Shown here in pieces: positions 1,384-55,697 of a stretch of DNA of 64,000 bases. The stretch's first letter is position 1, and every line of letters begins with the position of its first letter. Source of the DNA: Candidatus Omnitrophota bacterium (lineage in GTDB: Bacteria; Omnitrophota; Gorgyraeia; B26-G9). The notes under the pieces were generated by a model, which was not told the DNA's origin, ran no database searches, and saw only the letters and a program-made list of their open reading frames with translations. Both the position numbers and the translations under genes were made by a program. Where the stretch lies: NCBI GenBank assembly GCA_043826565.1, contig JBDRPX010000004.1:103604-167603 (forward strand), given 5' to 3'.

Positions 1384-1400
1384 AGTTAAAGATTTTTCAG

Positions 1401-1452
1401 GTTTTGATTTTTGACTTGAATTTTTGCATTTTGATTTTTGAATTTTGATTTT
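1401..1452 (+). repeat. degenerate heptamer array (TTTTGAN-like, ~7 units) upstream of the exeA-like gene
   Basis: The sequence reads GTTTTGA TTTTTGA CTTGAAT TTTTGCA TTTTGAT TTTTGAA TTTTGAT. The related array at 55625-55672 has the same flavour. Confidence 0.55.
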
Positions 1453-1468
1453 AACCTGGAAGGTTACT

Positions 1469-3009: not shown

Positions 3010-3145
3010 AAATCCTGTAGGGGCGGCGGCTTGTCCCCGCCCGAGTTAAATAAATTGATAAAAAAGAGTTTCTATTATATAATAAAAGAGTAATTCAAAG
3101 GAGGAGTTATATCCACAGCTTTATGGTGATTAAAGGATTAATTAC

Positions 3146-4192
3146 ATGAAGACATTAGTAGCTTTCGGCATATCATTTTTTACTGTACTTATCTGCACTC
3201 CTTTATTTCGCAGGATTGCGCTATATCTTAATATTCTGGATTTCCCCAGCAAAAAGAAAATACATAAAGACCCGATCCCTCTTTTAGGAGGATTGGCGAT
3301 CTATTTTGGCGTAATCATTTCTTTCCTGTTTTTTCAGCAAAGCTTCTTTGTTTTTTGGCCGATTCTCGTCGGAGCTACCATAATCATGTATATGGGCGCT
3401 CTTGATGATATGAAAGGGCTTTCCGCGCGCATACGTTTATTTATTCAGATAGCTGTGGCTTTATTTGTTGTCATGGCCGGAGTGAGAGTGAGTTTTTTAC
3501 CGAATAATATCTGGGGTAATATCGGAGAGTATATCGTAACAATATTCTGGCTGGTGGGAGTAACGAATGCTTTTAATTATCTGGATGGACTGGATGGTTT
3601 AGCTGCCGGGTCAGCAGCTTTAAATTTTTTATGTTTTTATGTAATTTTGTACAGCACCGGCCAATTTCCCCTGGGATTAACCGCAACTATATTAATGGCA
3701 GCCTGCCTGGGGTTTCTACCCTATAATTTCATGAATAAGAAAAAGATGTTCTTAGGGGATGCCGGGAGTATGTTTTTAGGTTTTTGTTTAGCCGGCATGG
3801 CGGTTATCGGGCACTGGGCCGGAGATGCGCTGGTTAAATTATTTATCCCCATATTGGTAATCGGGGTGCCGATCTTTGATATGATCTTTACGACAATTAT
3901 GCGTATCAAAGAGGAGAAAATAAGGAATATCCTGGATTGGCTTAAATATGGAGGCAAAGATCATTTTCACCATTATCTGGTGGATTTGGGTTTAGGGCAG
4001 AAGGGGGCGGTTTTATTTATATACTATCTTACAGCGTCATTAGGCTTAGGAGCGGTAATGGTAAGCAATGACAATGCGGTGGAGGGGGTTTTAACGCTTT
4101 TACAGGCTTCAATAATTTTTGGCGTCATCGGAGTTCTGATTGTTGTCGGTAAAAAACACAGGTTTGAAAAGAAAACAGGGCAGGAAGAGTAA
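3146..4192 (+). CDS. glycosyltransferase family 4, WecA/TagO/MraY-type polyprenyl-phosphate sugar-1-phosphate transferase
   Basis: Multi-pass membrane protein with DFPSKKKIHKDPIPLLGG and NAFNYLDGLDGLAAG motifs characteristic of the MraY/WecA family. At 348 aa it fits WecA better than MraY. Confidence 0.75.
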   Translation: MKTLVAFGISFFTVLICTPLFRRIALYLNILDFPSKKKIHKDPIPLLGGLAIYFGVIISFLFFQQSFFVFWPILVGATIIMYMGALDDMKGLSARIRLFIQIAVALFVVMAGVRVSFLPNNIWGNIGEYIVTIFWLVGVTNAFNYLDGLDGLAAGSAALNFLCFYVILYSTGQFPLGLTATILMAACLGFLPYNFMNKKKMFLGDAGSMFLGFCLAGMAVIGHWAGDALVKLFIPILVIGVPIFDMIFTTIMRIKEEKIRNILDWLKYGGKDHFHHYLVDLGLGQKGAVLFIYYLTASLGLGAVMVSNDNAVEGVLTLLQASIIFGVIGVLIVVGKKHRFEKKTGQEE

Positions 4193-4307: not shown

Positions 4308-4392
4308 TTAGTGGAAAAAGGCAAACTCGTGGTAACGCGAGGGCGCAAAGCCGTGCACCCCGAAAATTCGGGGCAGGCAGGTTGCCCGATGA
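4308..4392 (+). ncRNA. candidate c-di-GMP-I (GEMM) riboswitch aptamer
   Basis: The segment GGCAAAC-[CUCGUG GUAA CGCGAG]-GG-CGCAAAGCC-[GUGCACCCCG AAAAUU CGGGGCAGGCAGG]-UUGCCCGAUG matches the GEMM-I layout, including the hallmark GGCAAAC and CGCAAAGCC strings. The first helix is capped by a GNRA tetraloop. The 3' UUGCC pairs with the 5' GGCAA to form P1. Confidence 0.6.
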
Positions 4393-4536: not shown

Positions 4537-5694
4537 ATGCCCAGGTTGCCAAGAGTTTACATTGAAAATTCAGTTTATTATGTAACATGTAAGGGATTGC
4601 AAAACCAGGTAATTTTTAAAGACGCGAGGGACTACGAAATGTACTTTGAATTGTTGAAAAAATACAAAGAACAATACGCAGTCAAACTTTATGCTTATAC
4701 TTTAATGCATAATCATTTGCATTTATTAATGGAAGTTGATAAAGAAGCCAGTATTTCCACAATTATGCACGATTTGACCTCTTCTTACACAAAATATTTT
4801 AATGGCCGCTATGACCGCAAAGGCCATTTATTCCGAGAAAGATTTAAAGCCGCTGTTGTAGAAAAAAATCCGCAAATCCTTTTGGACCTTACCGCATATA
4901 TCCACCTCAATCCCAAGCGATTGAACTTAGGCATACAAGGACGTACGTATCCGTATAGCAGTTATGAGCTTTATCTGGACTATTCCCCAAAGTCCGATAG
5001 AGGGCTGGCTATAAAAAATGAAATTGAAAGTATTGTTAATAAGCTGGTTGGCGAAAATTATGTTGAGTTTATGAACCGCATGCAGGATAACGCGGAGTTC
5101 CAGAAAAATTATAAAAAACTTCAGCGTAAAGGAATGATCGGCTCAGGTGAATTTATGAGCAGAGTTAAAGAAGCTATCGAGCAGCAGCGAAGTGAGCCCG
5201 AGGAACCGGAGTTAGAAGAAAAAATATTACATTCTAAGAATGTTCTTATGAACACGGGAGTGGCGGTATTGCTTTTGAGCATAAGCGCGGGGGGCGTTTA
5301 TTTATATTTTAATTACGCAAATAAGGTATTGGATAAACCCCAGATACCTGTTGCGACAGTTGAGCTGCAGTTGAAAGACCTGAATAATACCGAGTGGCAG
5401 GTGGAAATGTTCAATATGGATGGGTCCCTGGCCCGCGCGGATATTTTAAGTTTTATGCAGGGGAAATTCAGTTCGGCATATCTTTCTCAGTTTGAATTCC
5501 CGCATATTAATTATTCTGTTGTTTTTGAAGGAAATAAAATAATTTGGGAAACAATGCAGACATCGGCAACCGGGACCGCGTCATGGCGCGGTGAAGTGGT
5601 AGACGGCGAGATGCTGGGAATGGTCAGCCTGCGGCAGGAAGGGAAAGAACCGCAGGATTTTTCTTTTAAGAGTCTAAAATACAGGAGGAGATAA
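4537..5694 (+). CDS. HUH Y1-transposase-like (IS200/RayT-like) domain protein fused to a TM helix and an uncharacterised C-terminal domain
   Basis: HNHLHLLME (the HuH motif) and AYIHLNPKR (catalytic Tyr + NP) match the IS200-like/REP-associated tyrosine transposase fold. A TM segment VLMNTGVAVLLLSISAGGVYLYF follows, then ~120 unrecognised residues. ATG 4537 lies 12 nt after AAGGAG; the track's 4525 start is a TTG adjacent to the RBS. Confidence 0.6.
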   Translation: MPRLPRVYIENSVYYVTCKGLQNQVIFKDARDYEMYFELLKKYKEQYAVKLYAYTLMHNHLHLLMEVDKEASISTIMHDLTSSYTKYFNGRYDRKGHLFRERFKAAVVEKNPQILLDLTAYIHLNPKRLNLGIQGRTYPYSSYELYLDYSPKSDRGLAIKNEIESIVNKLVGENYVEFMNRMQDNAEFQKNYKKLQRKGMIGSGEFMSRVKEAIEQQRSEPEEPELEEKILHSKNVLMNTGVAVLLLSISAGGVYLYFNYANKVLDKPQIPVATVELQLKDLNNTEWQVEMFNMDGSLARADILSFMQGKFSSAYLSQFEFPHINYSVVFEGNKIIWETMQTSATGTASWRGEVVDGEMLGMVSLRQEGKEPQDFSFKSLKYRRR

Positions 5695-33013: not shown

Positions 33014-33198
33014 GATTTGATGTTAAGCAAGGAGGCGGACCATTGTCAGGATTAAGATGGCAGAGGGCAGATGACAGGAGTCAGTATTCAGAAAGTATAG
33101 TTCAGATATTTGGAAGCAAATGTTTGAAAAATATATTCTGTCTACTGGCTTCTTTTTTTCTGACTTCTGTTTTCTGATTTCTGTCTTCCGTAAAAAAT

Positions 33199-33450
33199 AT
33201 GGAAGCAAAATTACTAAGTGTTACTGTTTTAAGTCCGGAGAAGATTGTCTTTAAGGGGAAAGCTAAACGAGTTATCCTTCCGGGAGAAAAAGGAGTTTTT
33301 GAAATCCTGCCTTTTCACAAGCGGCTATTAAGCCGTTTACTTTCCGGAACGGTTATTATTGATGAACTAATGATTTCTATTTATCGCGGAGTAGTGCAGG
33401 TCGGAGAAAACAACGTGATGGTGATCATGGAGAATGAAAGAAAAGAATGA
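33199..33450 (+). CDS. atpC: F-type ATPase epsilon subunit, short form lacking the C-terminal helical hairpin
   Basis: LSVTVLSPEKIVFKGKAKRVILPGEKGVFEILPFHKRLLSRL is the epsilon N-terminal beta-sandwich. The product is only 83 aa. Confidence 0.55.
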   Translation: MEAKLLSVTVLSPEKIVFKGKAKRVILPGEKGVFEILPFHKRLLSRLLSGTVIIDELMISIYRGVVQVGENNVMVIMENERKE

Positions 33451-33457
33451 AAAACAG

Positions 33458-33545
33458 CGCATAGCGGGCAGCGTTTAGCGGATAGAAAAAGCAAAAAAAT
33501 AATATTAACTATACGCTATCCGCTCTACGCTAAACGCTATAAACG
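33458..33545 (+). repeat. inverted heptamer-array element of the ACGCT type, copy 2
   Basis: Left arm ATAGCGG GCAGCGT TTAGCGG ATAG, then an A-rich spacer. Right arm CTATACG CTATCCG CTCTACG CTAAACG CTATAAA, then CGGAGTG and ATG 33556. Confidence 0.7.
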
Positions 33546-33555
33546 GAGTGAATTT

Positions 33556-33774
33556 ATGGCCCGGCAAATAATATTACTATTTATTTTCATGCTTTGTATT
33601 TTAGGCCCCTCAGGCGTAATGGCTATTGCCGCTTTTGCCAGTATCTCGGCCCTGGGCCGGAATCCTTCGGCCGCGCCGAAAATTTTTACGGCGATGACAA
33701 TTACCTTAGTTTTTGCGGAAGCGCTGGCAATTGTGGCAATGCTGATAGTTTATCAGCTGTTTATGATGGGGTAA
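33556..33774 (+). CDS. atpE: F-type ATPase c subunit
   Basis: A 72-aa two-helix hairpin with a GRNP loop and a conserved carboxylate in helix 2 (VFAEALAIVAML). GGAGTG RBS lies upstream. Confidence 0.7.
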   Translation: MARQIILLFIFMLCILGPSGVMAIAAFASISALGRNPSAAPKIFTAMTITLVFAEALAIVAMLIVYQLFMMG

Positions 33775-33904
33775 ACAGGTCGCAGGTTGCAGGTTTCAAG
33801 ATATACTGTAACAGTCATAGTTTTTGAGACTTGTGACATGAGACTTGAGACATGAAGAGTGACTTTTTGTGTAATTATAGGTATAATAAGGACATAAGTA
33901 TAAA

Positions 33905-33990
33905 AAATGAGAATTGATAATTGAAAATTGTAAAAGCCAGTCAGTGATTTTCCAATATTCAACATTCAATACTCAATTTTCAAACTCGAT
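33905..33990 (+). repeat. conserved ~80-bp intergenic inverted-heptamer element, copy B
   Basis: TGAGAATTGATAATTGAAAATTGTAAAAG...TTTTCCAATATTCAACATTCAATACTCAATTTTCAAACTCG lies immediately 5' of the atpF-like start at 34001. Confidence 0.7.
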
Positions 33991-34000
33991 GAGGTGATAT

Positions 34001-34732
34001 ATGGTAGTAGTAAGTATGATATTATTACAGGTTATTATCTTCGGCGGACTGATATTTCTTTTAAGGCATCTTCTTACCCGTAATGTTACGGATGCGACCT
34101 CACATATGCAGGGAATGATCAAAGGGTACTCGGAAAAAGAGGACCAGATAAAAATTAAACTTGAAGAGGCAGAGAAATATTATGCAGAAAAAATAAAAAA
34201 CGCGGATAAAGAAATTGAAAAATTGAAAGATGAATGCAAGAAGCAGATTGATGAAGAAAAAGTGCAGGTATTGGCCCAGGCGCATAAAGAGAGTGAGACG
34301 GTGATAAACAAGGCCAGGCTTACCTGCGAGGCAATAGAAAATGAATTGGAAAGTAAAATTAATCAGAGAGGAATAGAAAAAGCCGGAGAGCTTATTTGCC
34401 AGGTGCTTTCGCCGGAACTTTGCCAGATAATTCATACGACCTGGGTAGAATCATTAATTGAAAGCGGATTCGCCACAATGGAGTGGCTGAAGGTACCGGA
34501 AGCTGTAAACGTGGCCAAGGTTTCCACGGCATTTGCTTTAACTAAAACACAGAAAGAGACTTTACAGAAAAAACTTGATATCAAATTAGAGAGAGAAATT
34601 AAAATAGAAGAAAAGGTAAGTGAAAAGCTTGTTGCCGGGATGATTATTAATCTGGGCAGCTTGGTTTTAGACGGGAGTTTTGTTTCCAAGATCCGGGAGG
34701 TTGTGCGTGAGTCTACAGCAGATGAAAGTTAA
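34001..34732 (+). CDS. F-type ATPase b-like subunit with a delta(OSCP)-like C-terminal motif (possible b/delta fusion)
   Basis: N-terminal TM helix, then a long Lys/Glu-rich coiled coil. The C-terminus VAGMIINLGSLVLDGSFVSKIREVV resembles the delta-subunit C-terminal motif. GAGGTG RBS lies upstream. Confidence 0.45.
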   Translation: MVVVSMILLQVIIFGGLIFLLRHLLTRNVTDATSHMQGMIKGYSEKEDQIKIKLEEAEKYYAEKIKNADKEIEKLKDECKKQIDEEKVQVLAQAHKESETVINKARLTCEAIENELESKINQRGIEKAGELICQVLSPELCQIIHTTWVESLIESGFATMEWLKVPEAVNVAKVSTAFALTKTQKETLQKKLDIKLEREIKIEEKVSEKLVAGMIINLGSLVLDGSFVSKIREVVRESTADES

Positions 34733-36188
34733 GCTAGCTCAAGAAATAAAATTTAATGTCCGGGAAATCGGCAAGGTTAAATCTGTTCGTGAATTTATTG
34801 TCCGGGCAATAGATATGCCCTCATGTATAAACGGACAGATTGTTGAGTTTGATAACGGATTGCCCGGAATGGTGATGGGGTTTACGGAAAATGAGGTTCA
34901 GATTTTAGTGCTGGGGCCTAAAGCTCAGATCCGGGCCGGTGATCGGGTGTATAGTAAAGGCCGGTTTCTTGCTCTTCCGGTAGGAGATGCTTTTGTCGGA
35001 AGAATCGTAAATGCTTTGTGTGAACCGGTCGATAATAAAGGACCGATAAATGCGCGGGAAAATTATCCGGTATTTAGAGAGGCCCCCGGAGTTATGGAAA
35101 GGCTTCCGGTAGAAAGGACATTAGAATCCGGAACACGTCTTATTGATACAATGATTCCTTTGGCCAAGGGACAGCGTCAGCTTTTAATCGGAGACCGGCA
35201 GACCGGCAAGACAACAATTGCGATAGACGCGATATTAAATCAAAAGGACAAAGATGTAATTTGTATCTATTGCTCGATCGGAAAAACATATTCCAGCCTG
35301 GAGAAATTAGTTGCTTTATTGCGTGAAAAAGGCGCTATGGATTACTCAATTGTTGTCAGCGGGATAGCCTCTGCTTCGGTGGGAGAACAGTATTTAGCGC
35401 CGTATACGGCTTGTATGCTTGGTGAGTATTTTATGTTTAACGGCAAAGATGTATTAGTTGTTTTTGATGACCTGACCAGGCATGCCTGGACTTACCGGCA
35501 GATATCCCTGCTTATGGATAGAGCTCCGGGAAGAGAAGCGTATCCCGGAGATATCTTTTATACGCATTCCCAGCTTATGGAAAGAGCCGGACAGATGAAT
35601 GAAGCTTTAAGCGGCGGTTCAATGTCTTTTTTTCCGATAGTGGAAACTTTACAAGGTGATGTTACCGGTTATATACCGACTAATCTCATATCTATGACTG
35701 ACGGGCAGATTTATTTAAGCACCGCTTTGGTAAACAAAGGATTTATGCCGGCGGTTGATGTCGGTCTTTCGGTTTCGCGTATTGGCAGTAAATCGCAATG
35801 GCCGGCTTTGAAGGAACCCAGCCGCAGCCTGCGGCTTGATTTTTTGCAATATCAAAAATTGCAGGAGATGACGCAGTTAAGAACCAGTGATCTTTCTGAA
35901 GATGCGGCGAGAAAATTAAAAAGAGGCGCGGCCATAACACAATTGCTGATCCAGGATAAGAATGATCCGGTGACCATGGAAAGAGAAGTTTGTGAAATGT
36001 ATGCGTTTGTCCGGGGAGTTCTGGATGACTTTACTCCTTTGGAAATAGATAAGTTTAAAGAAGAGTTTTATAAAAAAATTGTAGAAGTAGCTCCGGATCT
36101 GCCGAAACGTTTGCGCGAAACACAGGTGCTCATGGATGAGAGTATGATGAATTTGGAAGAGGGGATTGGTATTTACTTCCCCAGCTAG
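34722..36188 (+). CDS. atpA: F-type ATPase alpha subunit
   Basis: GDRQTGKTT P-loop and alpha-specific regions (LLIGDRQTGKTTIAIDAILNQK, AYPGDIFYTHSQLMERA). It overlaps the preceding gene by 11 nt. Confidence 0.85.
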   Translation: MKVKLAQEIKFNVREIGKVKSVREFIVRAIDMPSCINGQIVEFDNGLPGMVMGFTENEVQILVLGPKAQIRAGDRVYSKGRFLALPVGDAFVGRIVNALCEPVDNKGPINARENYPVFREAPGVMERLPVERTLESGTRLIDTMIPLAKGQRQLLIGDRQTGKTTIAIDAILNQKDKDVICIYCSIGKTYSSLEKLVALLREKGAMDYSIVVSGIASASVGEQYLAPYTACMLGEYFMFNGKDVLVVFDDLTRHAWTYRQISLLMDRAPGREAYPGDIFYTHSQLMERAGQMNEALSGGSMSFFPIVETLQGDVTGYIPTNLISMTDGQIYLSTALVNKGFMPAVDVGLSVSRIGSKSQWPALKEPSRSLRLDFLQYQKLQEMTQLRTSDLSEDAARKLKRGAAITQLLIQDKNDPVTMEREVCEMYAFVRGVLDDFTPLEIDKFKEEFYKKIVEVAPDLPKRLRETQVLMDESMMNLEEGIGIYFPS

Positions 36189-36393
36189 TATTATGAGTAA
36201 AAAGATTTTTTAAATTACAATATACAATTTTCAAATTAAAAATAAGTAGAATCTTTAGGATGTTTTATTACACTTTGTGGAATTATTTAAGTGATTTTGA
36301 TTTGTATATTGGAATTTGGTTGTAATTTGAGATTTGTAATTTTTGTTTATTCTTCTTACTTGGGATGTACTGTTATTTAAGGGGCTAATTAGA

Positions 36394-37236
36394 ATGGGTG
36401 CGATAGCAAAGCTCAAAGATGATATGAATTTTTATCGGTCCTTAGGAGGACTTATCGAGCTTTTGAAAATGATCGCGATCACCCATTATCATAATTTGGA
36501 AAAAAAACTGGAAACTTATGAGGAATATCTTAAGGTGATCGCCGGGTTTTTCTCCTGGCTGGATATGCAAAAGACAAGCCATCCCTTTATGCGCAGCTCG
36601 GATAAACCTACCGGGATTGTGGCGATCACTTCTGACGGCGGGCTTTTAGGCGGTTATAATGCGCTGATTATGAACGAAGCTATGCGTCAGAGACAGGAAG
36701 AAGACGGTAAACTGATTATTGTCGGTAAACGCGGTAAGCTTTATGTTGAAAAACAGAAAATAGTGTATGCTGTTTTTCCCGGGATAACTAATGCTGGCCG
36801 TTTAGAGCAGGCATTAAAATTAAGGGATTATCTGGTAGAGCAGGCATTAAAAGGGAATTTGGGGAAAATAAAAATTGTTTTTTCTAACCCCATTTCTTTT
36901 ACTTTACAGCGTGTGGAAACGATACAGCTTTTACCTTTTGTGCAGAAAATTCGGAGACCGCCTAAATTAGAGGTCAAAGATGTTATTTTTGAGTCGGACT
37001 TTGCCGGATTGGCAGAATATTTGATACATTTATGGATGGGGCAGAGAGTTTTTGAAATCCTTGGCTTAAGTCAGTTGTCCGAGCAGGCCGCGCGGTTTAT
37101 GCATTTGGAGGTTTGTACCCAAAGGATAAAGGAAATGGATCAAAAGCTTAAATTTAAATATTTTCGGGCGCGGCATGAGATTGTTGACCAGAATATGCGG
37201 GAGCTTTTTTCCGCGAGGATTATGAATGCGCAATAA
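36394..37236 (+). CDS. atpG: F-type ATPase gamma subunit (divergent)
   Basis: Its position between alpha and beta and its size fit gamma; the N-terminal helix is IAKLKDDMNFYRSLGGLIELLKMIAITHY. The longer ORF from 36343 adds a hydrophobic prefix with no RBS. Confidence 0.55.
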   Translation: MGAIAKLKDDMNFYRSLGGLIELLKMIAITHYHNLEKKLETYEEYLKVIAGFFSWLDMQKTSHPFMRSSDKPTGIVAITSDGGLLGGYNALIMNEAMRQRQEEDGKLIIVGKRGKLYVEKQKIVYAVFPGITNAGRLEQALKLRDYLVEQALKGNLGKIKIVFSNPISFTLQRVETIQLLPFVQKIRRPPKLEVKDVIFESDFAGLAEYLIHLWMGQRVFEILGLSQLSEQAARFMHLEVCTQRIKEMDQKLKFKYFRARHEIVDQNMRELFSARIMNAQ

Positions 37237-38641
37237 AATAAAAAATAAAGATGATAAAAAAAACACGGTTGGAAAAGTGATCTCCGTGCAGGGGCCGGTT
37301 GTGGATATAAAGTTTCCCCAACAGGAAGATGTTCCGAATGTTTTTGATCTTATTATCACCTATACTGTTGACGGACAAAAGGTGAGTTTGGAAGTTGCCG
37401 AACATTTGATTGGAAATGTCGCCCGGTGTATTTCCCTTAATTCGACTTTGAACATTCAAAGACATGCCGACGCGTTTGTGCCCGGCGGCGGGATTGAGGT
37501 TCCGGTCGGCGATGAGATGTATTCCCGGCTTATTAATGTTGTCGGCGAGCCGATAGATAAAAAGGGGCCGATTAATTCCACGGAAACAAGGCCGATTCGC
37601 ACAGCGTCCGCAGGAACAAAGATCAGTAAAAACAGTGACGAGCGAGGAACAGAACTTTTAGAAACCGGGATTAAGATTATTGACCTTTTATTTCCTTTGG
37701 TAAAGGGAAGTAAAAACGGGATTCTCGGCGGTGCGGCTATGGGGAAAAGTGTTCTTACTCTGGAAATAATCCAGCATATTGTTAAACGTCATCAGGGTTC
37801 TTGTGTGTTTACCGGAGCCGGAGAGCGTATTCGTGAAGGTAATGAATTATATTTCGAATTGGAGAAGCATAATATTCTGCCGAAAATGAAAATGGTTTTT
37901 GGACAGATGAATGAACCTCCCGGAGCTCGTTATGCAGTAGCGATGACCGGGATAACCTTAGCCGAAAGTATTCAGCGTCAAAACAAAGATGTACTTTTAT
38001 TCATTGATAATGTATTTCGTTTTCTTCAGGCCGGGCAGGAAATATCTACGCTGCTGGGCCGGGTTCCGTCGGAAACCGGATATCAGCCGACATTGTTTTC
38101 CGAAGCTGCGGATTTTCATGAACGTATACGTTCACAACAGGAATACGGCGGGTCGATTACCTCGATTGAAGCCGTATATGTTCCGGCAGATGACTTAACT
38201 GATCCGGCGGTAGTTGCGATATTTAGTTTTCTGGATTCGCTTATTGTTCTTTCTCGTGAACGGGTACAGATGGGGCTGTATCCGGCAATAGATCCGCTTC
38301 TATCAGCGTGTAATAACCTGGATACCGATATTGTCGGGAAATATCATTATGGAATTGCTCAGGATGTATTGCGTGTTTTTCAGCGTTATGAAGAACTTAG
38401 AAAGATAGTATTAGTTGTCGGTATTGATGAGCTTTCTTCTGCGGACCGTTTGACCTATGAACGAGCGCTTAAACTTCAGAATTTTCTTACCCAGCCGTTT
38501 TCTGTCGCGGAATCTTATACCGGAAGAAGAGGGGTGTATGTTACGGTTGACCAGACACTGAGCGGGTGCAAAAGAATCATGTCCGGAGATTTTGATAAAC
38601 AGAATGAAGGGGATTTTTATATGATGGGAGCATTGGCCTGA
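37226..38641 (+). CDS. atpD: F-type ATPase beta subunit
   Basis: Beta-subunit architecture with a divergent P-loop GGAAMGKSV (canonical GGAGVGKTV). The DELSEED region is replaced by DELSSAD. It overlaps atpG by 11 nt. Confidence 0.8.
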   Translation: MRNKIKNKDDKKNTVGKVISVQGPVVDIKFPQQEDVPNVFDLIITYTVDGQKVSLEVAEHLIGNVARCISLNSTLNIQRHADAFVPGGGIEVPVGDEMYSRLINVVGEPIDKKGPINSTETRPIRTASAGTKISKNSDERGTELLETGIKIIDLLFPLVKGSKNGILGGAAMGKSVLTLEIIQHIVKRHQGSCVFTGAGERIREGNELYFELEKHNILPKMKMVFGQMNEPPGARYAVAMTGITLAESIQRQNKDVLLFIDNVFRFLQAGQEISTLLGRVPSETGYQPTLFSEAADFHERIRSQQEYGGSITSIEAVYVPADDLTDPAVVAIFSFLDSLIVLSRERVQMGLYPAIDPLLSACNNLDTDIVGKYHYGIAQDVLRVFQRYEELRKIVLVVGIDELSSADRLTYERALKLQNFLTQPFSVAESYTGRRGVYVTVDQTLSGCKRIMSGDFDKQNEGDFYMMGALA

Positions 38642-38648
38642 TCTCAGA

Positions 38649-38677
38649 TTGACAAAATTATTTATCAATGCAATAAT
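38649..38677 (+). promoter_or_regulatory. possible sigma70 promoter for the gspE-pilZ operon
   Basis: TTGACA at 38649-38654, a 17-nt spacer, then AATAAT at 38672-38677 preceded by TGC (extended -10-like). Confidence 0.3.
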
Positions 38678-42180: not shown

Positions 42181-42244
42181 CGAAGTTACAGGTTACAAGT
42201 GACAGGTGACAAGTTGTAATAAATAAATCAAGAAAAAATCAATA

Positions 42245-43099
42245 ATGCGAATTAAATTGTTCGAATATATTTCTTTTGGAGTGATACTATTTTTATTCAC
42301 ATGTTCTTTGGCAGGAGCGGAAGAATGGGCGGAGGTAAAAGGGGATCATTTTATTGTCTATTTCCAAGGTCCGAATAAAAATTTTGCCAGCCAGGCTGCC
42401 CGAAAAGCTGAGGAATACTACCTGTCTATAGCGCAAGACCTGGGATATGTACGGTATTCCGGTTTTTGGAAATGGGAGAACAGAGTAAGAATTTTTATTT
42501 ATCCGGACCGCGATAAATATTTGGAATCTACCGGCCGGCCGCAGTGGTCCCGCGGTATGGCTGATTATACGAAAAAGCAGATAGTAAGTTATATGTGGAG
42601 CGAGAATTTTTTGGAAGTTCTTTTAGCTCACGAGATCGGTCATTTGATTTTTCGTGACTTTGTCGGTTTTAAAGGAGAAGTTCCTCTTTGGCTTGATGAA
42701 GGCGTCGCGCAATGGGAAGAAAAACAATTTCGGATTCCCCGAAAAATGGCCATGAAAAATATGCTTGAAGAAAACAAAATGTTTTCTTTTTTGGATATGA
42801 TGAAACTTGAAATCAAAAATATCGATGAAGAAGATCCGATATTTATTACCTCATCATTTAACGGGAAGAATGAAGTTAAAATTGTCGAGGGTAAAACACT
42901 TATTGAGATGTACTATTTGCAGTCATTCTCATTAGTGGGATTTCTGATGGAAGAATATCGCGGAGAAAAATTCATCGCTTTTTGCCGGCAGTTAAGAGAC
43001 GGAAAATCTGTGCAGGAGGCTTTGGGGCATACTTACCCTACCGATTTGAGGACATTTGAAGATTTAGAAGAAAAGTGGAGAAAATACATACTAAAATAA
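42245..43099 (+). CDS. secreted peptidase-MA-like (HExxH...EG..Q.E) domain protein
   Basis: Signal peptide ISFGVILFLFTCSLAGA. AHEIGH followed by WLDEGVAQWEE resembles the zinc-binding signature of the Peptidase_MA_2/DUF1570 family. Confidence 0.5.
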   Translation: MRIKLFEYISFGVILFLFTCSLAGAEEWAEVKGDHFIVYFQGPNKNFASQAARKAEEYYLSIAQDLGYVRYSGFWKWENRVRIFIYPDRDKYLESTGRPQWSRGMADYTKKQIVSYMWSENFLEVLLAHEIGHLIFRDFVGFKGEVPLWLDEGVAQWEEKQFRIPRKMAMKNMLEENKMFSFLDMMKLEIKNIDEEDPIFITSSFNGKNEVKIVEGKTLIEMYYLQSFSLVGFLMEEYRGEKFIAFCRQLRDGKSVQEALGHTYPTDLRTFEDLEEKWRKYILK

Positions 43100-43165
43100 A
43101 TCAAAAATCAAAAGTCAAAAGGCAAAATTACAATGCAAAATTCAAAAATAAAAAGATAAATGATA
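43093..43165 (+). repeat. degenerate heptamer array (AANTCAA-like, ~10 units) upstream of gspG
   Basis: The sequence reads AAATCAA AAATCAA AAGTCAA AAGGCAA AATTACA ATGCAAA ATTCAAA AATAAAA AGATAAA TGATAAA. Confidence 0.55.
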
Positions 43166-43589: not shown

Positions 43590-44061
43590 AAACAGAAGTC
43601 AGAGGTCAGAAATCAGAGGTCAGAAGAAAAAAAATCTGTCATCTGTTATCTGTCATCCGACGTCTGGTTTTACCTTAGTCGAGGTGCTGGTTGCGGTGGT
43701 GGTTTTGTCCGTAGGATTAGTCATTATATATGAATCATTCTTAATGTCGCTCGATGTCATAAATTTGTTCTTCAATCGGTTAAATGCGCAGTTTTTCATA
43801 AGTGAAAAAATTGCTCAGGTTCAGCATGGATTCGACCAGCCGGCGGGAACTTTTTTCTCTCCAAATCAAAACGGAATAGTTACTTTAAATAACCGTCTGT
43901 TTAATTGGCAAATAGATATGAATTTGCTTGATGTCCGAGGGGAACTTTATAAGCTTGATACTGTTGTTTCCTGGAAAGAGGGATCTAAAGATAGTGTGAT
44001 CCGCCGGTCTACGCTGGTTAAAAAATATTTTTCTAATTCCTGCCCGGAGAAAAAAAGGTAA
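43567..44061 (+). CDS. minor pseudopilin (GspH/I-like); start uncertain
   Basis: Class III signal G|FTLVEVLVAVVVLSVGLVII. The only in-frame ATGs are at 43567/43570, overlapping the gspG 3' end. That start implies a 34-aa basic leader encoded through a heptamer repeat. The track's start at 43465 would overlap gspG by 125 nt. Confidence 0.45.
   Translation: MMLIIGSKNRSQRSEIRGQKKKNLSSVICHPTSGFTLVEVLVAVVVLSVGLVIIYESFLMSLDVINLFFNRLNAQFFISEKIAQVQHGFDQPAGTFFSPNQNGIVTLNNRLFNWQIDMNLLDVRGELYKLDTVVSWKEGSKDSVIRRSTLVKKYFSNSCPEKKR
43591..43672 (+). repeat. inverted heptamer arrays (CAGARNT x5, an A-run, then TCTGTYA x3-5) at the gspG / minor-pseudopilin junction
   Basis: The sequence reads CAGAAGT CAGAGGT CAGAAAT CAGAGGT CAGAAGA AAAAAAA TCTGTCA TCTGTTA TCTGTCA TCCGACG TCTGGTT. 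Confidence 0.6.
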
Positions 44062-44690: not shown

Positions 44691-44770
44691 AATGATGATT
44701 ATTGAGAGTTGATAATTGAAAATTGTAAAAATATTTGATGTTTTTCCAATAGACAACACTCAACGGTCAA
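44688..44770 (+). repeat. conserved ~80-bp intergenic inverted-heptamer element, copy C
   Basis: TGAGAGTTGATAATTGAAAATTGTAAAAAT...TTTTTCCAATAGACAACACTCAACGGTCAATTTTC lies upstream of the gspK-like start at 44810. Confidence 0.65.
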
Positions 44771-44809
44771 TTTTCTTATTAACTATTTTAGGAAAAATTA
44801 TTTAAGCAT

Positions 44810-50614: not shown

Positions 50615-50721
50615 TTGATCTCGTAGGGAACGGGACTGCCCGTTCCTAGGATGGCATATAAATTTTATAATATCAAAAATACGGTTCAGGCAGGCCTGAA
50701 CCCTACAGGTTCTAAAAAACC

Positions 50722-52380
50722 ATGCTGAATAAACAGAAAATTATCAGCGAGTTTCTAACCGCTAAAGGTATAATTACAATTGACCAATTGCAGCAGGTCA
50801 AACAGCTGCAGGACCGTACTCAAGAAAGCATTAAAAGTGTTTTTAAAAAACTTAATATTTTTTGTGATAATCAGTTGGGCAATCTAATCATCGAAGAATT
50901 AGGTCTTTCCTTTATCGACCCTTTCACATTTACTTTTAAGCCGGCAATGCTGGAACTTACAGAATCTTTTTTTGCTAACCGTTTTCGGGTTATGCCGCTT
51001 GATATCCAAGGGGATGAGTTGACGATAGCGCTGGATAATCCTCTTAATTTTATTTTACTGGAATATTTCTCTAAAGTTTTAGGCTGTAAAATTAATGGTG
51101 AAATGATCCGGGTAGAAGCTATGGACGAACTGCTGAAAAAGTATTACCCCATAGCTTCGGAAGATATGGTTGCGCCTTCTCCGGAAGAGACCACAGATAG
51201 CGAGGGACATATAGCGGATGATGCTCCCGTAGTCCAGCTGGTAAGCATGCTGATTTCTGACGCGTATAGAAGAAGAGCCAGTGATATTCATATAGAGCCG
51301 TTACAGGAAACATTACGTATTCGTTACCGTATTGACGGGGTATTGCAGCAGGTCCAATCCCCGGTAAAGAAATTACAGGCTTCTGTAGCCAGCCGGATTA
51401 AATTAATGGCGGGAATGAATATCGCCGAGAAACGATTGCCTCAAGATGGAAGGATCCGTACGATTGTTGATAATCGGGAATTTGATTTAAGAGTTTCCAC
51501 TCTTCCGTCGCATTATGGGGAAAGTGTAGTTCTGCGTATTTTAGATAAAAGAGTTATGAATGTTGAAGAATTAGGGTTTTCCGATTTACAGCAGGAGGTT
51601 TTTAAAAATATTGCTAATTTCCCCAATGGAATCATTCTGGTTACCGGCCCGACCGGAAGCGGTAAAAGCACTACTCTTTATGCGGTGCTAAGTAGTATTA
51701 ATCGGGCGCAAAGAAAGATTCTAACGGTAGAAGATCCGGTAGAATATCAGATCTCCGGTATTAATCAGGTACAGGTAAAACCTACAATCGGACTTTCTTT
51801 TGCGATGGTCTTGCGGTCTATGCTTCGGCAGGCTCCGGACATTATAATGGTCGGTGAAATCAGAGATTTAGAAACCGCAAGTATTTCCGTGCAGTCGGCT
51901 TTGACCGGACATTTGATCTTTAGTACATTGCACACAAACGATGCCTCCAGTGCGATAACCAGGCTTGTGGATATGGGGATTAAACCATATCTTGCGGCAG
52001 CAACATTGCGGGCGGTTTTGGCCCAGCGGCTTATCCGTCTTTTATGCCCGCATTGTAAAGAAGCTTATAATCCTCCGAAAGATGAGGTGAAAATTTTAGA
52101 GATTGATTTGACGGATAAAGATGTGGTTTTATACCGGGCGAAAGGATGCAGCCAATGTTCTCATTCCGGTTATCTGGGACGCACGGGAATTTTTGAACTA
52201 TTGGTATTTGATGATGATATTCGGCAATTAACACATAAGCGTTTTCCGAGTACGAAAATTAGAGAAAGAGCCCGTTCGCGGGGTATGATCACCTTGAAAG
52301 AACATGCGACCGAAAAAGTCCTGAGCGGATTGACCAGTTTTCAGGAATTAGTGAGAGTTACGCAAAGTGATGTGGACTAG
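50722..52380 (+). CDS. pilB: type IV pilus assembly ATPase PilB
   Basis: N-terminal GSPII_E N-domain; VTGPTGSGKSTT; tetracysteine CPHCKEAY...GCSQCSHSGY. Confidence 0.85.
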   Translation: MLNKQKIISEFLTAKGIITIDQLQQVKQLQDRTQESIKSVFKKLNIFCDNQLGNLIIEELGLSFIDPFTFTFKPAMLELTESFFANRFRVMPLDIQGDELTIALDNPLNFILLEYFSKVLGCKINGEMIRVEAMDELLKKYYPIASEDMVAPSPEETTDSEGHIADDAPVVQLVSMLISDAYRRRASDIHIEPLQETLRIRYRIDGVLQQVQSPVKKLQASVASRIKLMAGMNIAEKRLPQDGRIRTIVDNREFDLRVSTLPSHYGESVVLRILDKRVMNVEELGFSDLQQEVFKNIANFPNGIILVTGPTGSGKSTTLYAVLSSINRAQRKILTVEDPVEYQISGINQVQVKPTIGLSFAMVLRSMLRQAPDIIMVGEIRDLETASISVQSALTGHLIFSTLHTNDASSAITRLVDMGIKPYLAAATLRAVLAQRLIRLLCPHCKEAYNPPKDEVKILEIDLTDKDVVLYRAKGCSQCSHSGYLGRTGIFELLVFDDDIRQLTHKRFPSTKIRERARSRGMITLKEHATEKVLSGLTSFQELVRVTQSDVD

Positions 52381-52557
52381 AAAATAAGGCTCAGAGCCTT
52401 ATTTTGAAATCACAATAAACAAATAACAGATTCCAAACAAATGACAATAACCAAAATTCAAATGACAAAAAATAGATTATAATATGCTTGGTGATTGATT
52501 TTTAAATATTGGAATTTGGAAATTGTAATTTGGAATTTAAAAAAATGGGGGTAGAAT

Positions 52558-55332: not shown

Positions 55333-55697
55333 AAATAAGTCAAAACTTAAAAGAGTAATACAAAACAAAAAAGTATTTTTTAATAATTTAGAAATATTGT
55401 ACTTTAATAAAGTGATATTTGTATATTTTGTTAACTATATATTTTCTCATAACGGCACAATTTTCCCGTACCGGGCGCGAAAAATCAGCTAAAAATCACC
55501 TCCCGGACTGACGGGCTCGGCAATTTTCTTAACGCTAATTTTTTGCTAAAATTGTGAGTTGTTCAAAACCATATAGATTAACAACTCGGTTAACACATCT
55601 TTGTTATATTACAGTAATATTTTTTAATTTTGATTTGTCATTTTGACTTTTGCTTTTTGAATTTTGAATTAGTTAATAATAGGATATTTATAAAATT

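Follow-up and report, generated by a model that had tools for sequence, protein, structure and literature searches.

The DNA analysed here (the window, a 64-kb chromosome segment of ~41% GC from an uncultured bacterium of the phylum Omnitrophota) carries degenerate tandem arrays of 7-nt units (heptamers) in its intergenic spacers. Its genes encode sugar-modifying enzymes, a Y1 transposase resembling the REP-associated tyrosine transposases (RAYT; REP, repetitive extragenic palindromic), a giant open reading frame (ORF), an ATP synthase operon, and two blocks of type II secretion system (T2SS)/type IV pilus (T4P) genes. The arrays reside within the ATP synthase and T2SS/T4P operons, and nearly every spacer-separated gene pair of the ATP synthase operon has an array element between its members (Table 1). 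The arrays listed in an initial annotation of this DNA were recovered with Tandem Repeats Finder (TRF), each at or a few bases from the place where it had been noted; further arrays, and the inverted pairing of most arrays overall, had been overlooked.

The excess of period 7 is real and highly significant. Runs were defined as at least 20 matches in 28 at a given lag and were counted in all spacers of at least 30 nt in a refined gene map (23 spacers, 3238 nt in total), with 300 dinucleotide-preserving shuffles as the null. Sixteen lag-7 runs were found against 0.07 expected (shuffle maximum, 1), and none at lags 4-6 and 8-13. At lags 7, 14, and 21, intergenic base identity was 0.350, 0.352, and 0.317, respectively; shuffles averaged 0.288 at lag 7 (z = 8.5). 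As the initial annotation had said of the flanking coding DNA, no heptamer periodicity is present there: 60.6 kb gave no lag-7 run, and its autocorrelation contains period 3 only. AT-rich low complexity, raised in the same annotation as a possible source of the pattern, does not explain it, because shuffled spacers yield so few runs and the neighbouring lags are empty; an artefact of this kind is ruled out. An assembly artefact is likewise ruled out, arrays of the same kind being present in independent NCBI, JGI, ENA, and Logan assemblies.

The statement that almost every spacer is affected was too strong: 11 (strict threshold) to 13 (relaxed) of the 23 spacers bear arrays, and the array-free ones contain a riboswitch, GC-rich hairpins, or a strong promoter conserved in relatives. 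Arrays are otherwise confined to intergenic DNA; two overlap stop codons and one is possibly in a leader-peptide region. TRF reports period 7 with 2.9-8.3 copies at 20+ sites in the window and 68-82% matches at that period; it often ranks period 14 above period 7, which points to alternating A/B units.

Table 1 Heptamer arrays of the window. Left and right arms of inverted pairs are separated by a slash; x, number of units; z, fold energy against shuffles. Elements marked † had been overlooked in the initial annotation (at 33056-33190, the left arm 33056-33097).
Position	Strand	Form	Units	TRF interval	Context and predicted fold
606-677†	+	inverted pair, AATTG family	AAAATTG x5 (606-640) / CAATATT x3 (655-677)		left arm overlaps stop codon of ORF 214-627; right arm stops 1 nt short of GGAG, 11 nt short of ATG 688
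1401-1452	+	direct-only	TTTTGAN x7	1402-1452 (period 7, 7.4 copies)	3 nt to GGAAGG, 17 nt to ATG 1469; z = -0.6, not significant
2288-2379†	+	inverted pair	TAGCGNN x4-5 (2288-2322) / NNACGCT x4-5 (2343-2379), A-rich loop		starts 4 nt past stop codon, stops 4 nt before GGAGGG, then ATG 2395; beaded hairpin, -32.5 kcal/mol, z = -3.3
33056-33190†	+	inverted pair	GNNGGCA/CAGA-type x6 (33056-33097) / TTCTGNN x7 (33140-33190)	33136-33188	between giant ORF and ATP synthase epsilon gene (ATG 33199); -54.9 kcal/mol, z = -7.7
33453-33544†	+	inverted pair, TAGCG/CGCTA family			epsilon/c subunit gene spacer; z = -4.2
33776-33858	+	inverted pair	CAGGTNG x3 (33776-33796) / TGAGACN x5 (33824-33858)	33776-33795; 33824-33855	begins 2 nt after c subunit stop codon; G-U wobbles join arms on + strand; z = -3.9
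33903-33987†	+	inverted pair, AATTG family	AAAATTG x4 / CAATATT x5		14 nt before b/delta ATG 34001
36214-36342	+	AT-rich inverted pair	NTACAA x3 (36214-36237) / ATTTG-type x7 (36294-36342)	36302-36342	alpha/gamma gene spacer; z = -2.2
42183-42217	+	direct-only	ARGTKAC x5	42183-42215	begins 3 nt after gspF stop codon
43093-43165	+	direct-only	NTCAAAA x8-9	43098-43154	overlaps upstream stop codon; ~10 nt from GGAGG and ATG 43185 (gspG); near-unstructured, -5.1 kcal/mol over 121 nt
43593-43668	+	inverted pair	CAGARNT x5 / ATCTGTY x5	43593-43626; 43634-43657	between gspG stop codon and GFTLVE motif of next pseudopilin, ORF open throughout; z = -4.5
44696-44776†	+	inverted pair, AATTG family	TGANAAT x4 / NNNNTCA x5		gspJ/gspK spacer; z = -2.8
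52417-52543	+	inverted pair	CAAAT-type x8 (52417-52472) / TTGGAAT x5 (52509-52543)	52417-52455 (weakest call, given as period 18); 52509-52538	upstream of pilT (ATG 52558); z = -1.5
55625-55672	+	direct-only	TTTTGNN x6	55621-55670	26 nt before ATG 55698 (gspF/pilC); z = +0.45, no significant fold

Architecture and placement of the arrays

A heptamer unit consists of a conserved core of 4-5 nt and 2-3 variable positions, and 3-8 units make up an array. Ten of the 14 array-bearing sites are inverted pairs within one spacer (core on the left, complement on the right, 10-60 nt apart); the remaining four are direct-only. As RNA, the inverted pairs are predicted to form hairpins of 60-150 nt in which blocks of 4-6 bp alternate with symmetric internal loops of 1-3 nt in a 7-nt register, giving stems of 22-52 pairs with periodic internal loops; the cores pair and the variable positions are mostly unpaired. 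The GC-containing hairpins are far more stable than their shuffles (the six with z from -2.8 to -7.7 in Table 1), and for the AT-rich ones the margin is smaller (z = -0.9 to -2.2). Pairing between arms, taken over 49 inverted pairs, was 0.755 in the best register, fell to 0.669 when the arms were slid by 7 or 14 nt, and stood at 0.388 out of phase; since so little is lost on sliding, the arms appear to be largely independent arrays of complementary cores in which a shift by a whole unit is tolerated. One clear mirrored alternation between arms (A/G on one side, T/C on the other) was seen by inspection, in the hairpin at 43593-43668.

Elements typically start 2-6 nt past a stop codon, or overlap it, and end 9-34 nt ahead of the next start codon, the Shine-Dalgarno sequence being left unpaired. 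Intrinsic terminators (GC-rich stem plus T run) were considered and rejected: the array hairpins do not have that pattern, and a terminator scan (13 sites against 11.1 +/- 4.1 expected) calls none of them. Promoter-like sites are not enriched in the window and do not coincide with arrays, the best promoter (38649-38677) being in an array-free spacer. In Rfam 15, at the gathering threshold, the arrays are unmatched and the sole match in the window is a cyclic di-GMP (c-di-GMP)-I-GGC riboswitch (4311-4390).

At least six unrelated unit families, all of period 7, are present in the 64 kb. The initial annotation had reported a different unit at each locus; the diversity of units stands, and the exclusivity does not, four families (TTTTGA/TCAAAA, AATTG/CAATT, TAGCG/CGCTA, CAGA/TCTG) recurring at 2-5 loci each, in part as paralogues. 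Over ~115 nt, A-rich loop included, the two hairpins of the TAGCG family (one from 2276, the other from 33441) share 84% identity, and their loops differ by one 7-nt indel; the three AATTG hairpins have a mean column identity of 69%, loops included. Because the copies are alike in their loops as well, whole elements, and not just units, appear to have been copied within the genome.

The array pair behind gspG touches a reading frame. The ATG of the second pseudopilin ORF overlaps the end of gspG, and the frame is open across the arrays to the GFTLVE cleavage motif (43590-43668 in the window; from 19776 in the relative L084); in the relative L083 (from 18666) the pseudopilin ORF also spans arrays, the GFTLVE motif lying beyond the translated stretch. 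Because the frame stays open, these arrays may contribute coding sequence to a prepilin leader that is long and variable; alternatively, translation may begin at a non-canonical start.

Turnover among relatives and distribution across genomes

AtpA of the window is at most 62% identical to proteins of GTDB species representatives (Ca. Ratteibacteria first, Omnitrophota next), and 79%, 72%, and 71% identical to proteins of three PVC/Omnitrophota metagenome-assembled genomes (MAGs; PVC, Planctomycetes-Verrucomicrobia-Chlamydiae). The contigs of these MAGs have the same order as the window (giant gene, ATP synthase, T2SS) and were compared as loci L083, L084, and L085. Comparison with relatives, which the initial annotation had proposed, bore it out: all three carry period-7 arrays in the same spacers, with six, eight, and three lag-7 runs, respectively, and a single lag-8 run (in L084) at other lags. 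Architecture is kept in orthologous spacers and the units are unrelated to those of the window (L083: ATAGTGA, GACAAAA, GGAATAT, GAGATAC, TAAGCNN; L084 and L085: TAGGGNN/CCCTANN and others), so that the claim of a constant period with a free motif holds between genomes as well as within one. The gspF-peptidase spacer, for example, has a direct-only array of five units in the window (ARGTKAC) and in L083 (TAAGCNN). The anatomy thus persists while the sequence is replaced.

Loci L109 and L127 (88% identical) have a unit family in common and indels of 3-15 nt, in an alignment that is unreliable; an array hairpin of ~190 nt in L127 stands at the place of a 16-nt spacer in L109. Any single array copy is dispensable. 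Small GC-rich palindromes, TGCCTGCCTGTCGGCAGACAGG and CCCTGCCTCATCGGCAGGC, are found inside the loops of two heptamer hairpins of L127 (~2330-2355 and ~3300-3325); the first palindrome is not in L109, and the hairpin carrying the second is wholly missing there. They recall the very small mobile repeats that reportedly occur within heptamer repeats of Nostoc. Loci L109 and L110 (99.93% identical over 9954 nt) have identical arrays and zero indels, and L085 differs from L086 by one base. Exact-protein look-ups for strain variants of the window returned the source sample only (SRR26275510), whose Logan contigs are 100% identical to the window.

These comparisons bear on phase-variable contingency loci, which the initial annotation had suggested and in which a fast change in unit number would switch the downstream genes. 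Tandem repeats do lie upstream of start codons, heptamer repeats drive switching of hmw1A in Haemophilus (PMC12721329), and 7-nt indels separate Cyanothece strains (PMC4679880). Against this, the degeneracy of the arrays (68-82% matches at period 7) suppresses slippage; the flanking genes have housekeeping (ATP synthase) and assembly functions and do not encode surface antigens only; and neither the nearly identical strains L109 and L110 nor the source-sample contigs contain an array indel. We give this explanation almost no credence.

Two wider samples were scanned, 80 GTDB loci recovered with AtpA and 75 metagenomic loci of Omnitrophota type (795 kb). Among the GTDB loci, lag-7 arrays are present in some Omnitrophota (L004, L006, L007, L012), in some Oscillospiraceae/Ruminococcus (L015/L016, L030, L033, L043), and in one cyanobacterial locus (L039, TAACTGA-type); most of the other loci, the best match L001 included, are array-free. 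The metagenomic loci gave 42 runs at lag 7, 10 at lag 8, and 0-7 at each other lag; at least two lag-7 runs were found in 10 of the 50 loci of at least 5 kb, and at least two lag-8 runs in two loci (L106 and L111). Altogether 132 arrays reduce to 89 canonical units (mean unit GC 0.30), few of which recur between genomes; a unit vocabulary shared across phyla is rejected on these counts. Array density, with crude gene calls, is 2.13 per kb in co-directional, 1.75 in convergent, and 0.84 in divergent spacers; a similar bias among spacer orientations is seen in REP elements.

Three side observations belong here. The Oscillospiraceae/Ruminococcus loci come from gut and rumen MAGs, and their inverted heptamer arrays have the same architecture as those of the window (AATGAAT/ATTCATT, GAGGTTA/TAACCTC, GAGTTAA/TTAACTC, for instance). 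Locus L106 has runs at lag 8 only. Locus L007 (1495-13058) has octamer hairpins, CACCCAGA followed directly by CTGGGAAA, with tiny loops, beside heptamers.

Proposed origin and possible role of the arrays

With the window, a known, widespread, and unexplained class gains a new and dense case from Omnitrophota; the identity of that class (heptanucleotide tandem repeats of the type of the cyanobacterial short tandemly repeated repetitive [STRR] sequences) is secure. The initial annotation called the pattern unusual, and it is not, heptamer repeats having been known since the STRR sequences were described; a literature search that combined Omnitrophota with heptamers found no report. Heptamers are the commonest periodic repeat of prokaryotic intergenic DNA and have been without an accepted explanation since 1990. 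In the SPADE survey of 7006 genomes they were the most abundant intergenic periodic repeat, left unexplained, with convergent inverted pairs noted in Xanthomonas (PMC6344855); an excess in prokaryotes had been found in a 2007 survey of simple sequence repeats (as cited in PMC4692102). These surveys, and the GGGNATC repeats of Xanthomonas and Nostoc, describe the same phenomenon as the arrays of the window, and GGGATTT/AAATCCC units are present in L109. Such surveys count near-perfect repeats, whereas most of the signal in the window comes from degenerate arrays that counts of this kind would miss.

The window also provides a consistent anatomy (complementary cores, uncoordinated variable positions, sliding by one unit, placement from stop codon to Shine-Dalgarno sequence), and array-rich and array-free genomes occur within one phylum, which makes Omnitrophota suited to comparative tests. 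The anatomy is hard to reconcile with selection for the most stable hairpin possible, or with pairing of the sense-strand RNA as the sole constraint.

Tentatively, and with doubts set out below, we favour a reading of the arrays as slippage-built, REP-like dispersed elements within operon transcripts. They would arise by strand slippage and tandem duplication in steps of 7 or 14 nt; only DNA free of reading frames would tolerate them, since 7 is not divisible by 3; and whole elements would also be copied into new spacers. Because they extend, within operons, from a stop codon almost to the Shine-Dalgarno sequence that follows, they are probably transcribed. The function we infer, should they have one, differs with form and is drawn from analogy: a hairpin may serve as an intercistronic double-stranded RNA stem, that is, as a processing site of the RNase III type, a barrier that stops exonucleases, or an element that uncouples adjacent cistrons, and a direct-only array may serve as an unstructured leader.

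The analogies are of several kinds. In cyanobacteria, 7-bp STRR sequences form hairpins between hupS and hupL, proposed to stabilise the transcript or couple translation (PMC2670836); like the arrays of the window they are intergenic, have 7-bp units of several kinds per genome, and form hairpins between co-transcribed genes. In Nostoc 7120, (TTTTGAA)3-4 occurs near start codons, including upstream of recF, and deletion of heptamer repeats alters the output of recO/recF reporters (bioRxiv 10.1101/2022.06.06.494920); TTTTGAA is the unit at 1401-1452 and 55625-55672. The phylum is another one, however, and the arrays of the window are more degenerate and more often paired; no homology is implied, and function is unproven in both. 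The TAACTGA direct repeats known from marine Beggiatoaceae, cyanobacteria, and Bacteroidetes stop a few nt short of start codons, and S1, Csp, or CsrA have been proposed as their binders (PMC4679880). They resemble the direct-only arrays at 1401, 43093, and 55625, but have one dominant unit, one orientation, and almost no inverted pairs, whereas the window has many units in both orientations, mostly paired. A mechanism has been demonstrated by experiment for just one heptamer-array hairpin, that of hmw1A of Haemophilus influenzae, in whose 5'-UTR (untranslated region) (ATCTTTC)n forms a long hairpin cut by RNase III (PMC12721329). It matches the proposed reading in that transcribed heptamers make up an arm of a long, imperfect hairpin before a start codon, transcription being inferred for the window. 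It is, however, a perfect, hypervariable repeat at one virulence locus with a non-repeat, G-rich tract as right arm, whereas the arrays of the window are degenerate, stable, present at many housekeeping loci, and repeats in both arms.

A number of observations weigh against the favoured reading. All four direct-only arrays lack significant structure. The variable positions are barely coordinated between arms, as the small loss of pairing on sliding indicates, and the TAGCG paralogues retain mismatches at those positions without compensation. Under selection at the RNA level, G-U should outnumber A-C on the sense strand; the 32 inverted pairs from co-directional spacers gave 63 sense-strand G.T pairs and 57 A.C pairs (p = 0.65, with limited power), and fold energies of the + and - strands differ in both directions across hairpins. 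The functional part of the reading is weakened because this sense-strand signature is missing. Arrays are present in divergent spacers too, and some orthologous spacers of L083-L085 are array-free or down to 3 nt. As to the slippage step, the few close comparisons (L109/L110 and L109/L127) revealed no indels in steps of 7 nt, and 7+7 duplications standing alone outside arrays show no particular enrichment (duplication ratio 3.0 at k = 7, 9.6 at k = 8, and 36 at k = 9, on counts of 6-8); array-negative relatives, taken as a control, have no excess of 7-nt indels.

Several of these points would be expected if the arrays were functionless debris, with a lineage-specific mutational bias to 7-nt tandem duplication, or the copying of selfish palindromes, filling whatever DNA has no reading frame. 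The many AT-rich canonical units, the rapid turnover with gain and loss of whole elements between relatives, the relatives' spacers without arrays, the symmetry of the strands, and the uncoordinated variable positions all fit, as does the patchy distribution (10 of 50 Omnitrophota loci, some Oscillospiraceae and cyanobacteria); polymerase slippage has, moreover, been proposed before for the heptamer excess (cited in PMC4692102). Slippage alone, on the other hand, does not predict that two thirds of the arrays should have an inverted partner with a matching number of units; the choice between hairpin and direct architecture is repeated in orthologous spacers, the density in divergent spacers is about twofold lower, isolated 7+7 duplications are no commoner than 8+8 or 9+9, and 7-nt indels are seen neither in array-negative relatives nor between L109 and L110. 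On this balance debris is an unlikely explanation, though one to be taken seriously.

Phased protein binding had also been suggested initially: each heptamer would be the site of a cooperative binder, on DNA (ribbon-helix-helix [RHH] proteins or IHF/HU) or on single-stranded RNA (an OB fold of the cold-shock/S1 type, covering ~7 nt). Omega repressor, an RHH protein, binds WATCACW heptads, and MetJ binds 8-bp metboxes. Units of core plus variable linker, 3-8 per array and both direct and inverted, suit this idea, as do the minority of genomes with period 8 (L007, L106) and the behaviour of the arms, which resemble separate arrays of a single core more than stems that co-evolve and have no strand asymmetry. 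One CspB per heptamer has been reported (reviewed in PMC4679880), and the paired sites of Geobacter metallireducens, inverted pairs of 3-5 tandem units of 7-9 nt between operon genes, were read as sites for IHF/HU (PMC2700814). The Geobacter families (GTTGCTYN x4, TCTCCGTS[Y] x3, MTYCTGA x5; between proB and proA, for example) are missing from the sister species (PMC2700814). They resemble the arrays of the window in their inverted pairing at variable distance, in the presence of several families per genome, and in their position between operon genes, and MTYCTGA resembles YTTCTGW at 33140-33190 when compared by published description; by the same description they differ in having 8-24 pairs each and in being GC-richer. 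In the window, at least six unrelated cores occur in 64 kb and other cores in each relative, and cores so diverse would demand either many specific, co-evolving proteins or a non-specific binder that needs no repeats; the number of cores per genome and their turnover between relatives thus make protein phasing less likely. Most arrays, furthermore, lie between stop codon and Shine-Dalgarno sequence within operons and not at promoters, loops of 10-60 nt part the inverted arms, unlike contiguous operator heptads, and no RHH, Csp, or S1 gene is present among the scanned window proteins. Omega/RHH-type heptad operators were rejected specifically, the arms being separated by loops and free of promoter overlap and the scanned proteins devoid of an RHH domain. 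Protein binding as the reason for the period is quite unlikely.

A more general idea is that a sequence-independent 7-nt "ruler" in a scattered subset of bacteria writes or selects heptamer arrays whatever the motif. The ruler could be a heritable property of a replication, repair, or RNA-processing protein, or of a periodic nucleic-acid binder. All three closest relatives are array-rich, as are ~20% of the more distant loci, and a few genomes have period 8. We regard the idea as very doubtful; if it were true, the determinant should be findable by phylogenetic profiling across array-rich and array-free Omnitrophota.

REP, bacterial interspersed mosaic elements (BIME), REP doublets forming hairpins (REPIN), and miniature inverted-repeat transposable elements (MITE) of the Correia type are, like the arrays, dispersed imperfect palindromes in co-directional and convergent spacers, species-specific, of fast turnover, and, as is probable for the arrays, transcribed as stem-loops. 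REPs, though, have 20-40 nt, a GTAG head, and no internal periodicity. Correia elements are marked by defined inverted repeats at their termini and by duplication of the target, and neither was found for the arrays of the window.

A dedicated enzyme that writes or spreads the arrays, one of the mechanisms named in the initial annotation, would in the window be the RAYT-like Y1 transposase (4537-5694), acting on REPIN-like arrays, or else a reverse transcriptase or polymerase. The encoded protein has a full-length match to the model for REP-associated tyrosine transposases (NF047646, 63.8 bits, E = 1.6e-17), the array hairpins occur as dispersed paralogues, and the cores TAGCG and TAGGG resemble the GTAG head of REPs. 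The score is, however, below the NF047646 cutoff of 80 bits; the gene has no flanking arrays, its upstream spacer holding the c-di-GMP riboswitch and the other having 60 nt; GTAG is missing from most unit families; conventional GC-rich elements of the form "GTAGGG + hairpin" in the window are likelier RAYT substrates; neither a target-site duplication nor a clean empty site was found; and no reverse transcriptase or telomerase-like gene is among the genes of the window. A REP/REPIN-RAYT system was rejected on the absence of GTAG from most arrays and of repeats flanking the RAYT-like gene, and an array-writing enzyme of any kind is highly improbable.

Other features of the window and its relatives

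The RAYT-like protein has 385 aa with a C-terminal extension of ~240 aa. Directly upstream of its gene lies the c-di-GMP-I-GGC riboswitch (60.1 bits against a gathering threshold of 59), and a terminator-like stem comes after it; control of a domesticated transposase by c-di-GMP, if that is what this is, would be unusual. GC-rich elements that resemble classical REPs (GTAGGG plus a short hairpin) are found at 3017-3043, 50623-50650, and 50683-50709 (reverse), and also in two spacers of L083 (9126-9294 and 19162-19250); the spacers in which they sit are free of heptamer arrays, and the RAYT-like transposase could plausibly use these elements as substrates.

All ORFs of at least 100 aa that resemble real genes are on the + strand of the window, and GC skew is positive over the whole 64 kb (+0.07 to +0.26). 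A single ORF of 8939 aa spans 6194-33013; it is made up of dozens of repeat modules of ~90 aa, and its C-terminal part has a coiled region and a membrane anchor. In L083, L084, and L085, giant ORFs, seen as fragments of 3374 to 7685 aa, occupy the corresponding place ahead of the ATP synthase operon. That operon (33199-38641) encodes epsilon (83 aa, N-terminal domain only), c, a b/delta fusion, alpha, gamma, and beta; it has no a subunit gene, and its order is common to L083-L085.

The array upstream of pilT is preceded by a terminator-like stem with T run (52386-52406; AAGGCTC AGA GCCTT ATTTTG), directly after the stop codon of the ATPase gene at 50722-52380. The promoter at 38649-38677 is of a strong sigma-70 type (TTGACA-17-AATAAT, with TG just before the second hexamer) and lies upstream of gspE; a near-identical sequence is present in L084 and L085, where the surrounding arrays are not conserved.

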